Part shown: positions 10,101 through 16,100 of the stretch, one piece after another
How positions within the stretch are numbered: position 1 is the stretch's first letter
Layout of the letters: the number at the start of each line of letters is the position of its first letter
Origin: Cetorhinus maximus
Lineage: Eukaryota
Direction: 5' to 3'
Assembly: GCF_964194155.1 (NCBI RefSeq)
Contig: NC_135900.1
Location: 52,886,001-52,950,000 of the forward strand
Length of the DNA: 64,000 nucleotides
Position numbers and translations under genes: made by a program
Notes under the pieces: generated by a model
Databases searched by the model: none
The model's input: only the letters and a program-made list of their open reading frames with translations
What the model was told of the DNA's origin: nothing

Positions 10101-13100
10101 TCGGACCAGCAAGCCCTCACATTGGCATTGACCTCAGCTGGTCAGTGCCAGTGTGGGAGATGGTCTGGGCACCAAGTTTCCCAGCTTGGCGACCATCCCA
10201 TCCACGGTGAGCAGGAAGGTGCAATCTGGGAGGTGCTGAGCGGTCCAGGCATTGGAAGTGCATCTTGAGAAGATCGACGGCTCTCTCCACCACAGCCCTT
10301 GTGGAGATGCGGCTGCTATTGTACCGCTGCTCAGCTTCTGTTCCTAGATGGCGGAGAGGCATCATGAGCCACCTTCTGAGGGGATAGCCCTAGTCACCCA
10401 ACAGCCACCCATCCAGTCGGGCTGGAGCACGGAAGAGCCCCGGCACCTGGGAGTGTCTGAGGATGTAGGCATAGTGGGAGCTGCCTGGGTATCTTGCACA
10501 GACTTGTAGAATCTGCACCCTGTGGTCACACATTATCTGCATGTTCATGGAGTGGAAGCCCTTCCTGTTGACAAAGGCACCGGGCTCAACTGCTGGTGCC
10601 TTGTTGGCCACATGTGTACAGTCCATTGCACCCTGGACACGGGGGAAGCCCACTGGCTCACTGTGTCTGGCTTGCCTGGTCCCAGTGGTAGTGGATGACG
10701 GTCAATACAAGCCTGAACAGAGCAACTGTAACCTGCTTGACACAAGTATGGACAGCTGATTGGGAGACACCGCAAAGATCACCCGCCAACCCCTGGAAGG
10801 AGCCGGAGGCATAGGAGTTGAAGGCAGCTGTGGTCTTTAGAGCCGCTGGCATGGGGTGTCCGCCCACACAGTTCGCAGAGATCTCAGGCCCAATCATCTG
10901 ACAAATATAGTTGACTGTCTCCATTGAGAGATGGAGTCTCCTTCTGCACTGCACCTCAGACATATTGCAGTAGTTGCTTCATTGCCTGGTGGCAGGATAG
11001 TGACATCTTCTGCCTTGGACTACCTCTTAGCCCCACATCCCTTGTGTCTGTGCCTGGACTCCCAAAGGTGGCTCCCCTGGAGGCTGAATGTGCACTCCTG
11101 GCCTCCTCCCCCTTCTAGCCCTCCCTTCTTCCTCAGAGGAGGTGCCTCCAGTGGAGAGTTCAGCTCCCATTCCCAGGCTAAGTGAAGGCTTCCAGAAACC
11201 TGCAGGCCCAAAATAGATTCCTCACTGCAGAGTGCTGACCTGAAGGTTGTGAGTTCAGATCAAGCAGCTGGTGTGCATTTTGAAGTATTGCAGATCACAC
11301 AGGCAAGTATCAGTAACTTTGAAAAAACAATATTTGGTAGAGTACACTCGCGACCCCACTGAGCCCTCTTAACCCGTCCGTGGATGAGGTTTATACAAAT
11401 GTGTCCTACCTGCCTGACCCAAAGATCGCACAGGCACCGAAAAATCACCGTCGATTGGCGCCTCAAGGGCCTTAAGTGGCCCGTTAATTAATGGCAGGCG
11501 CGCATCAGATATCATTGCGCATCCGCCCAATGAAATATCACGATGGCGCGCGGTGACGTCGGGACACTCGTCCGACATCACCACATATCATTTTATGTGG
11601 CGGCGTGCGGGTCCTGCCCCTGCATGTCAACAGGAAAATTCTGCCCATTAAAACAGAATTTTAAAAAATTATTCATTCATGGGGTGAGGGCTTCACTGGG
11701 CAAGCATTAATTGCCCATCCCTAATTGCCCTTGAAAAGGTGATGGTGAGCTGCCTCCTTGAACCACTGAAGTCCATGTGGTCTAGGTACACCCACAGTGC
11801 TGTTAGGAAGGGAGTTGCAGGATTTTGACCCAGCGACAGTGAAGGAACGGTGATATATTTCCAAGTCAGGATGGTGAGTGACTTAGAGGGAACTTCCAGG
11901 TGGTGGTGTTCCCATCTATCTGCTGCCCTTGTCCTCCTAGGTGGTAGTGGATGTGGGTTTGGAAGGTGCTGTCTAAGGAAACTTGGTGAATTCCTGCAGT
12001 GCATCTTGTAAGTGGTACACACTGCTGCTACTGTGCATCAGTGGTGGAGGGAGTGAGTGTTTGTGGATGGGGTGCCAATCAAGCGGGTTGCTTTGTCCTG
12101 GATTTTGGCAAGCTTCTTGTGTTGTTGGAGCTGCGCTCATCCAGGCAGGTATTCCCCTCCTGACTTGTGCCTTTTAGATGGTGGACAGGCTTTGGGAGTC
12201 AGGAGGCGAGTTACCTGCCGCAGGATTCCTAGACTCTGACCTGCTCCTGTAGCCACAGTGCTAATATGGCTAGTTCAGTTCAGTTTCTGGTCAATGGTAA
12301 CCCCCAGGATGTTGATAGTGGGGGATTCAGTGATTGTAATGCCATTGAATGTCAAAGGCTAATGGTTAGATTCTCTCTTGTTGGAGATGGTCATTGCCTG
12401 GCACTTGTGTGGCATGTATGTTACTTGCCCACTTGTCAGCCCAAGCCTGGATATTGTCCAGGTCTTGCTGTATTTGGGCATGGACTGCTTCAGTAACTGA
12501 GGAGTTGCGAATGGTGCTGAACATTGTGCAATCATCAGCGAACATCCCCACTTCTCACCTTAGGATGGAAGGAAGGCCATTGATGAAGCAGCTGAAGATG
12601 GTTGGGCCTAGGACACTACTCTGAAGAATCCTGCAGTGATGTCCTGGAGCTGAGATAACTGACCTCCAATAACCACAACCATCTTCCTTTGTGCTAGGTC
12701 TGACTCCAACCAGAAGAGAGATTTCCCCTGATTCCCAATGGCTCCTGTTTTGCTATGGCTCCTTGATGCCACACTCGGTCAAACATGGCCTTGATGTCAA
12801 GGGCGGTCACTCTTACCTCACCTCGGGAGTTCAGCTCTTTTTTCCATGTTTGAACCAAGGCTGTAATGAGGCCAGGAGCTGAGTGGCCCTGGCAGAACCC
12901 AAACTGGGCATCAGTGGGCAGTATTGCTAAGCAAATGCCGCTTGATAGCACTGTTAATGACCCCTTCTATCACTTTACTAATGATCGAGAGTAGACTGAT
13001 GGGGCGGTAATTCGCCCGGTTGGATTTGTTCTGCTTTTTGTGTACAGGACATACCTGGGCAATTTTCCACATTGACGGCTAGATGCCAGTGTTGTAGCTG

Positions 13101-16100
13101 TACTGGAACAGCTTGGCTAGAGCGCGGCAAGCTCTGGAGCACTATTCTTCAGAGTACTATTGCCGGAATGTTGTCAGGGCCCATAGCCTTTGCAGTGTCC
13201 AATGCCTTGAGCCATTTCTTGATATCACATGGAGTGACTCGAATTGGCTGAAGACTGGCATCTGTGATGCTGGGGAACCCCCGGAGAAGACCAAGATGGA
13301 TCATCCACTCGGCACTTCTGGCTGAAGATCACTGCAAATGCTTTAGCCTCATCTTTTGTACTGATGGGCTGGGCTCGCCCATCATTGAGTAAGGGGGTAA
13401 TTATGGATCTTCCTCCTCCAGTGAGTTGTTTATTTGTCCACTATCATTCACGACTGAAGGTGGCAGGACGTTAGAGCTTAGATCTGATCCGTTGGTTGTG
13501 GAATGACTTGCTCCTTATGCTGTTTTTCATGCAAGTAGTTCTGTGTTGTAGCTTCACCAGGTTGACACCTCATTTTTAGGTATGCCTGGTGCTGCTGCTC
13601 CTGGCATGCCCTCCTGCACTCTTCATTGAACCAGGGTTGATCCCTTGGCTTGGTGGTAATGGTAAAGTGGGGGATATGCCAGGCCATGTTCGAGTACAAT
13701 CCTGCTGCTGCTGATGGCCCACAGCGCCTCATGGATGCCTAGTCTTGAGATGCTAGATCTGTTCGAAATCTATCCCATTTAGCATGGTGGTAGTGCCACA
13801 CAACACAATGGAGGGTATTTCTCAATGTGAAGGCAGGACTTCACCTCCACAATGACTGTGTGATGGTCACTCCTTCCAATACTGTCATGGACAGATGCAT
13901 CTGTGGCAGACAGATTGGTGAGGATGAGGTCAAGTATGTTTTTCCCTCTTGTTGGTTCCCTCACCATCTGCCGCAGACGCTGTCTAACAGCTATGTCCTT
14001 TAGCACTCGGCCTGCTCAGTCAGTAGTGGCAAGCCACTCTTGCTGATGGGCATTGAGGTCCCCCACCCAGAGTACATTCTGTGCCCGTGCCATCCTTAGT
14101 GCTTCCTCCAAGTGGTGTTCAACATGGAGGAGCACTGATTCATCAGCTGAGGAGGGGGAGGGGGGGGGGGAGGGGGGTGGCGGCGGCGGACGCAGTACAT
14201 GATAATCAGCAGGAGGTTACCTTGCCCATGTTTGACCTGATGCCATGAGACTTCATGGGGTCCATAGCTGATGTTGAGGACTCCCAGGGCAACTCCTTCC
14301 CAACTCTGTACCACTGCACCGCCACCTCTGGCGGGTCTGTCCTGCTGGTGGGGTAGGACATACCCAGGGATGGTGATGGCGGTGTCTGGGACATTATCTG
14401 TAATGTATGTTTCAGTGAGTATGACTATGTCAGGCTGTTGCTTGACTAGTCTGTGAGACAACTCCCCAATTTTGGCACAAGCCCCCAGATGTTTGCAAGG
14501 AAAACTTTGCAGGGTGGATAGGGCTGAGTTTGCCGTTGTCACTTCTGGTGCCTAGGTCGTTGCCATTCCTTTTAGACTGTTTAGTGGATTGATATAACTG
14601 AGTGGCTAGGTCATTTCAGAGGGCATTTAAGAGTCAACCACATTGCTGTGGGTCACTTGTAGGCCAGACCAGATAAGGATGGCAGATTTCCTTCCCTGAA
14701 GGACATTAGTGAACCAGAAGGGTTTTTACAACAATCGACAATGGTTTCACGGGCATCATTAGAGCTTTATTGAATTCAAATTTGAACCTGGGTCCCCAGA
14801 GCATTGCCCTGAGTTTCTGGATTACTACTCCAGCAACAATACCAGTATGCCACCGCCTCCCCTGCATTATCTACAAGTTTGATTTGTTTAATTTAATGTG
14901 AATGACCCCAAGGCATTGATTTTTTTTAATAGCAGGGACCTAGCTGCACGCACACATCCTGTCACACTTGGAAAAAAAACAGCTCCTACCTCAAGAATTC
15001 CTTTCTTTTTTTTATCGTCCTTCTCCTCACTGTCAGTTTTTCCTGTTATGATTATATAACAGTCTCTACACACTTTGTTGAGCTTGTTGCTGTCATATGC
15101 TAGGCTTGCTTTGTGATCAGAACACTTCCAGCACACAACCTAGAAAAAGAAAGAGAGACACATTTAAATAGGCTTTTGATGGGTCACACTGATTTGAAAA
15201 TGCCACTTGCTATTATTTATGTAGCCTCCTGTTCATCAGCCATCTTGATGACGATATATAACAACAGGTAAGTAGCAGTAAAAACAGCAGCAACTTATAT
15301 GTAGCACCTTTAACATAGAAAAATTTTGCAAGGCACTTCACAGAAGCATTCAAAATTTTACACTAGCCCATCGAAGGAGATGTTTAGGGTAGATGACAAA
15401 ATAACAGGTAAGTACAATGTTTTAAATGGTAAATCTTTATTTTATAATTTTAATAGGTTTTTTGTGCATCTCTTGATGTGCTATTTAACTGGCCACAAAT
15501 TGATTGTCATTTTGCTTCCATTCTGCTTCCTCAGCTTCTATTGGCATCATTAAGCCATTATTGTGGTCTGTGATGAGTGCACATCTCTTTTAAGAAGGCT
15601 GCATTAAATTATTCTTTCTCCACCCGTTCCTCACCACTGTCACAATTGATTTCAATGGGATGAGGAGCAGGAGACCATTAAATTGATTGAGTTCTAGGAA
15701 GACAGCGATGTCCTATAAGGAGAGATCAAGACAATTGGGTCTATATTCTATGGAGTTTCGAAGAATGAGAGGTGATCTCATTGAAACACCTAGGGTTAAA
15801 AAATCGTTATGGTCCATTTTCAGGTGTGACCTGCGGCACCCATTGACATTGGAGTGGGCAGCATGCAAATTTTATGCTGCCTCCTTGATTGTAGCCTTCA
15901 AAAGGTCTGAGTGGGACACTGTTGTTAGCTACCTGAGTGCTCAGTAGGAGACCAAGTAATGTACCCAGACCTTCCATGGTGCAGGCAGTCTGCCCTTCTT
16001 AAAGGGAAGTTGCATTACATGGAAGGGAATTGCTACTGCTTGCATGAAGGAGTTGCACAAATACCGCACAATTTGGGGACAGAGGGCTCGGCTTGTAGGT

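Follow-up and report, generated by a model that had tools for sequence, protein, structure and literature searches.

A tRNA-headed Zenon LINE of sharks and rays, its probable full-length transcription through RNA polymerase III, and short partner elements of which some are internal deletions

We examined a long interspersed element (LINE) lying on the minus strand of a 64,000-nucleotide (nt) stretch of the Cetorhinus maximus genome (contig NC_135900.1, positions 52,886,001 to 52,950,000; genome size 4.0 Gb), which is referred to below as the window. Our results demonstrate that a tRNA-like head is an integral part of the family to which this element belongs, identified by its sequence as the already catalogued elasmobranch Zenon of the CR1 group, and that the open reading frame (ORF) of the family, with endonuclease (APE) and reverse transcriptase (RT) domains, evolved under selection. 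RNA polymerase III (Pol III) likely transcribes the family over its whole length from the A and B boxes of the head. A broader proposition, which we consider evenly poised, is that Zenon of sharks and rays would be a self-sufficient coding retrotransposon with a full-length Pol III RNA and uncapped, AUG-less translation, kept across both groups, with codons and amino acids reshaped against Pol III terminators, and the direct parent of tRNA-headed short interspersed elements (SINEs) by single deletions.

By the usual division, LINEs are coding and driven by RNA polymerase II (Pol II), and SINEs are non-coding and driven by Pol III. If an abundant vertebrate LINE indeed used a tRNA promoter and had lost Pol III terminators from its ORF by purging, it would break this division and would provide a natural example of protein made from a long Pol III transcript. 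It would further offer a one-step route from LINE to SINE. The defined 3.3-kb element makes the promoter question testable, and the value of the case lies in the reading of the promoter and not in the copy within the window.

The original prediction, made from the window, described a LINE without ORF1 and with a tRNA-Thr-derived 5' head, and all of its motifs map on the window copy at the minus-strand place it gave, 14862-11660 (Table 1). A genome query that combined the head and the endonuclease yielded 13,027 first-look candidates. For sampling independent of the head, a 44-nt endonuclease motif with 1,338 exact matches in the genome was used, and 90 of the first 100 listed matches, all on contig C1, were retained (one inverted pair and the last 8 were left out; L066 and L067 are duplicates). 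Among these 90 copies, the 5' end lies at family nt 1-10 in 37 (31 if alignments are not chained), including 26 that start at nt 1; 51 copies start within nt 1-40, and the remaining ones are cut at scattered points. Most full-length copies begin at or near nt 1, a few bases ahead of the tRNA-like part, and the bases upstream of nt 1 are unrelated between copies. No other 5' untranslated region (UTR), ORF1, or longer 5' end was seen among the 90 motif-picked copies, and with the endonuclease starting at family nt 440 there is, as predicted, no room for an ORF1. Target-site duplications gave no signal (6 of 37 copies versus 17 of 188 mismatched pairs). The head-ORF junction is the same in dispersed copies; it is a feature of the family, and the head is integral to the element. 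Chance placement of a truncated LINE next to SINE copies, or its targeted insertion into them, might have been argued from the abundance of SINEs with the same head, about four times that of head-bearing LINEs (53 versus 13 of 70 loci), but has a negligible probability and is already refuted by the fixed junction, which is identical in dispersed copies and in five published species, with unrelated downstream flanks and no second SINE tail in the 37 copies.

An upstream flank common to L087, L110, and L117 was considered as an alternative 5' UTR and was rejected, because the breakpoints differ and the flank is a repeat found in 44 of 294 loci. This repeat contains CTGATGA...GAAAC, an arrangement presumably like that of the hammerhead ribozymes in Penelope-like elements.

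The window copy itself is dead, with 12 in-frame stops, 16 frameshifting indels, and two runs of four T residues (T4). GGTTC of the B box is present, but the word GGTTCAAAT, in which the original prediction had seen the B box, is a deletion junction: 23 nt are missing from this copy, which breaks the family B box. ARAGORN called no tRNA on the window, Rfam gave no tRNA match on window positions 11000-16000, and Pfam matches for APE and RT on pieces of the window were weak. The term autonomous, also used in the prediction, fits the ancestral family but neither the window copy nor any other copy seen, none being intact. A C-rich expansion of about 35 nt lies at 14150-14190, in the copy's endonuclease region.

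At a length of 3290 nt, the family majority comprises the head (nt 1-95), a body (nt 96-315), a leader, the endonuclease from nt 440, the RT, a stop codon at nt 3227, a 3' stem-loop (predicted), and an A tail; in their 3' flanks, family copies show A-rich ends, which represent a poly(A) tail. It contains a single open frame of 975 codons with APE and RT motifs, and an RVT_1 match above cut-off was obtained on L111. From nt 440 on, 36 of the 61 shared non-CpG variants are synonymous, which indicates that master copies were under selection for protein. Only 4 shared variants bear on the coding frame of the leader.

Both boxes are perfect in the majority when compared with TRGCNNARYGG (A box) and GGTTCRANNCC (B box), which we take to be the Pol III box motifs. 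At its default threshold, ARAGORN calls the majority head as tRNA-Thr(agt), a cloverleaf with an anticodon loop and a long variable arm, and calls the heads of single copies in only 3 of 37. In alignments against 7 host tRNA types, the head scored 56.3 with tRNA-Ser(AGA) and 56.2 with tRNA-Thr(AGT); its anticodon is AGT, and its long variable arm is Ser-like. The parent tRNA is thus ambiguous, and the predicted derivation from tRNA-Thr is now one of two candidates. The body shows no unusual folding energy. Four short motifs published for Deu, Meta, and UCON3 (passages covered of PMC7245038) match the body no better than shuffles, and alignments also look unlike it, so that its assignment to the "Deu domain of SacSINE1" was rejected.

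The passages covered of Stuart et al. 2026 (PMC13343379) describe shark and ray Zenon elements that lack ORF1, have a poly(A) tail, and group with crustacean elements, with consensuses for CarCar, ScyCan, RhiTyp, and HypSab (Zenon-1) and for SquAca (Zenon-1 to -3). All 7 consensuses, from 5 species including a ray (Table S2 of that paper), begin with the same head and body, with motif matches and near-identity by eye over the first 400 nt, and the five Zenon-1 consensuses are 3244-3314 nt long versus 3290 nt for our majority. Table S3 of the paper gives 3 intact copies among 612 for HypSab_Zenon-1. In a 49-row RT tree, which holds no named Zenon RT, the family clusters together with two crustacean proteins and is separated from host CR1 (99/96). 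Judged from the match to the consensuses and the like length, the family is elasmobranch Zenon and not a new one, a point that the prediction had left undecided. A "CR1-Zenon like LINE" is also named in the part consulted of a whale shark preprint (10.1101/443036). According to the passages covered of PMC13343379, lack of ORF1 is general to Zenon, and so it does not result from head capture. Over the first 400 nt, examined by eye, both hagfish Zenon consensuses have no head at the 5' end, and the coelacanth 5' end is of low confidence and unlike the head. Because other Zenons are without the head, we infer that it was captured in the shark-ray ancestor. The main text of PMC13343379, as consulted, contains no mention of tRNA or promoter, nor does the consulted part of the whale shark preprint, and the passages covered of the former discuss neither the head nor the deficit of T runs, the lack of an AUG, or the connection with SINEs. 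A literature search, with subscription papers, Repbase, and Dfam outside its scope, found no paper on a tRNA-headed coding LINE. The family is known; its promoter type seems to be unremarked in the searchable literature.

Pol III stops at runs of at least four T residues on the sense strand. The scan for such terminators that the prediction had proposed found no T4 run in the 3290 nt of the majority, and only 6 runs of three or more T (T3+) versus 47 A3+, 50 C3+, and 41 G3+. Within the ORF, 4 T3+ runs were observed versus 12.9 in synonymous-codon shuffles, a threefold deficit (P 0.0005). Two host CR1 majorities built in the same manner showed no deficit, with 6 T4 runs each (2.2 and 2.6 T4/kb), and single copies contain 0.36 T4/kb in the Zenon family versus 3.2 and 3.3 in the two CR1 families. 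Split T-rich signals number 0 in the family versus 4 and 4 in the controls. Relatives were also compared, using 80 metagenome loci with CR1-group relatives, 54 of which have frames of at least 600 amino acids (aa). None of these 54 lacks T4, and their observed/expected ratio for T3 is at least 0.79 (median, 0.98) versus 0.32 in the Zenon family. The family protein contains 1.85% Phe, below all 27 same-clade proteins (lowest, 2.2%), and none of the 88 Leu codons of the ORF is TTA. L355, the closest of the DNA relatives, starts with ATG; its ORF includes 20 T4 runs, and the 949 nt upstream of it contain neither the head nor a called tRNA. Taken together, the T-run data suggest, as good indirect evidence, that Pol III transcribes the element over its full length. 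Four calls made by ARAGORN at a relaxed threshold upstream of the 54 relatives were set aside as likely chance, with only that of L374 inspected.

Several points weigh against full-length transcription by Pol III or against the use of such a transcript. The first majority contained one T4 run, which was gone after the majority was rebuilt allowing for CpG decay, and the absence of T4 in the ORF alone is not significant in comparison with codon shuffles (P 0.083). The relatives used as a control are mostly CR1-group elements and not Zenon, as the tree includes 12 DNA relatives and only L355 falls in the family clade. AATAAA is found about 40 nt ahead of the A tail, which would suit a Pol II element. 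RNA made by Pol III carries no cap, and the ORF frame has no AUG ahead of the endonuclease, its first Met being residue 291, beyond this domain; a structured fold resembling an internal ribosome entry site was not found in the body (z -0.9 to 0.2). Finally, the longest open frame among the 90 copies is 361 aa, and no intact copy was seen.

In an alternative reading, the head is integral but the coding RNA is made by Pol II, either from the head or body or by read-through from host genes, with the boxes and the avoidance of T runs serving non-coding template copies made by Pol III or representing a relic. Such a transcript would need no uncapped translation, AATAAA is present near the tail, the window copy lies in the sense orientation in an intron of a gene encoding a FYVE domain, and the 5' regions of LINEs normally hold Pol II promoters (passages covered of PMC5786205). 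Most full-length copies, however, begin at or near nt 1, as with Pol III internal promoters, and the purging of T runs spans the whole ORF, where Phe is rare and TTA codons are absent; a ribosome scanning from a cap would still encounter 13 AUGs within the first 460 nt, of which none could serve in frame. We therefore regard transcription of the coding RNA by Pol II as possible but rather unlikely. It is still less probable that the head persists chiefly for its RNA structure and not as a promoter, mimicking a tRNA so as to recruit ribosomes, confer stability, or load the RT, and that the deficit of T runs has another cause. The majority head does still fold as a cloverleaf with an anticodon loop and a long variable arm, and the absence of an in-frame AUG would agree with such a role, but the A and B boxes fit Pol III words, the same head occurs on non-coding SINEs (53 of 70 body-anchored loci), and the controls showed no other cause for the T-run deficit.

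If Pol III does transcribe the whole element, the following sequence of events can be proposed. A Zenon ancestor would have gained the head in the shark-ray lineage, most likely when the RT switched template onto a tRNA-headed RNA. TFIIIC would occupy the boxes, and Pol III would transcribe 3.3 kb, passing the A tail and ending in a T run of the flank; selection for this read-through would have purged T runs from the element. Lacking an in-frame AUG, the uncapped RNA would be translated either from a non-AUG start or by a shift from a conserved out-of-frame AUG, which is the weakest step. An AUG of this kind is found at nt 348, with 35 codons, and is also visible in the Zenon-1 consensuses of all five species. 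The protein would then attach to the stem-loop at the 3' end and use the RNA as template for target-primed reverse transcription, which is established for LINEs. As promoter and tail are both present on every full copy, a working SINE would result from a single internal deletion.

Short partners of the LINE were collected with a body motif that has 6,813 exact matches in the genome. The first 70 loci were examined; 53 are short elements of head, body, and tail, 13 continue into the ORF, and 4 are unclear. The 53 short elements include junction classes A (nt 292 joined to nt 3217; 20 elements), B (315 to 3216; 14), and C (315 to 3213; 7), and 12 are without class. Compared with the LINE, class A differs at 2 of 277 positions in the head and at 3 of 66 in the tail, and class B at 14 of 280 and 5 of 65. 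All three classes join ahead of the stop codon. In L260, L135, and the short element at window 7646-8032, the join lies at about nt 3188, so that LINE-only bases are retained, and TCAA is common to both ends, which indicates internal deletion; some short SINEs are internal deletions of the LINE. The right-hand breakpoint is almost the same in classes A to C, which may go back to a single event. This near-single breakpoint also raises the possibility that an older SINE donated the head. An old-type copy used as a query returned mostly young-type copies.

The Zenon LINE presumably resembles R2 in having one ORF, no Pol II promoter of its own, and translation without an ordinary capped AUG start. 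It presumably differs in that R2 is co-transcribed by Pol I inside ribosomal DNA and has a restriction-like endonuclease and a ribozyme, whereas shark Zenon is dispersed and has APE and tRNA boxes. With SINE2 elements, the Zenon LINE shares a tRNA head with A and B boxes, but at 3290 nt and with a selected ORF it is neither short nor non-coding, features displayed only by its short derivatives. In the passages covered of Kojima 2018 (PMC5786205) and Kojima 2020 (PMC7245038), SINE2 elements with bipartite LINE parts consist of a tRNA head, a body, and a LINE tail, and template switching makes chimeras; in those elements, a deleted LINE without coding capacity received the head, whereas in shark Zenon it stands on the whole coding element. 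A precedent for the deletions is Persaeus SIDE of lepidopteran Zenon (passages covered of PMC6740152), where internal deletion of a Zenon LINE likewise produced short elements that consist of its two ends. Persaeus is described there as without tRNA, 5S, or 7SL homology and without a Pol III promoter, whereas the shark deletion product is a tRNA-headed SINE. SacSINE1/DeuSINE (passages covered of PMC5499810 and PMC4824008) is likewise a shark tRNA-headed SINE with a conserved body. The tail of SacSINE1, known here by description only, is of L2 type, and the Deu motifs printed in PMC7245038 are unmatched in the shark Zenon body. A motif search of three supplements gave no match.

Table 1. Features of the Zenon LINE family in the window (domain edges of the reverse transcriptase are approximate)
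Feature	Position	Strand	Remarks
Full-length decayed copy, tRNA-headed Zenon (CR1-group) LINE	11660..14862	-	92% identity to family majority; starts with GGGGAGG at 14862
tRNA-like head (family nt 1-95)	14783..14862	-	23-nt deletion removed 3' part
A box	14842..14852	-	one change versus family word, which fits TRGCNNARYGG
AGT anticodon position of cloverleaf	14824..14826	-	
B-box remnant	14784..14788	-	GGTTC at 14788; family word fits GGTTCRANNCC
Unnamed body (family nt 96-315)	14596..14782	-	common to short SINEs
LINE-only leader	14494..14595	-	open, Arg/His-rich, AUG-less in ORF frame
Out-of-frame AUG (family nt 348, 35 aa)			overlaps LINE-only leader
APE endonuclease domain, broken	13860..14493	-	NIWG codons 14493 (370 nt from start), GDxN 14063, SDH 13871
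Reverse transcriptase domain, broken	12300..13050	-	NYRPI 13012, FADD 12542
3' tail	11660..11734	-	part common to LINE and SINEs; last ORF codons, stop 11723, predicted stem-loop, AATAAA position, decayed A tail ending at ~11660
Short SINE-sized copy	7646..8032	+	head and body joined to family nt ~3188 inside ORF end, internal-deletion type
Short SINE-sized copy	50079..50416	+	head and body (to nt 315) joined to tail (nt ~3218)
5'-truncated fragments, same Zenon LINE family	1702..3218	-	

Sequences related to the family were also encountered elsewhere. The 5' 900 nt of the family occur in sequencing-run contigs of three organisms at 0.62-0.69 of words, these contigs giving no starts or strand. 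In runs X19 and X20 (RNA; labelled coral metagenome and metagenome), pieces along the whole element make up a small share, and nothing is concluded from them. Loci L325-L354 represent a young canonical CR1-type family, whose copies are 97-98% alike and which is far younger than the Zenon copies.

In the window, the LINE starts about 130 nt past an exon with a FYVE match (15139-14990, minus strand; E 5.5e-4, below the Pfam cut-off), presumably of a gene resembling the FGD family, and occupies the next intron. Its 3' end adjoins a DDE_Tnp_4 transposon, one copy of which begins a few bases past the A tail of the LINE. This PIF/Harbinger-like DNA transposon family (DDE_Tnp_4, E 1.2e-11) extends over about 8090-11650 with many long and short copies, and relatives are found at 35600-38140, 27900-28750, 30900-31530, 49500-50040, 56280-56560, and 62580-63750. 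A 25-nt tandem unit is present in five perfect copies at 52538-52661.

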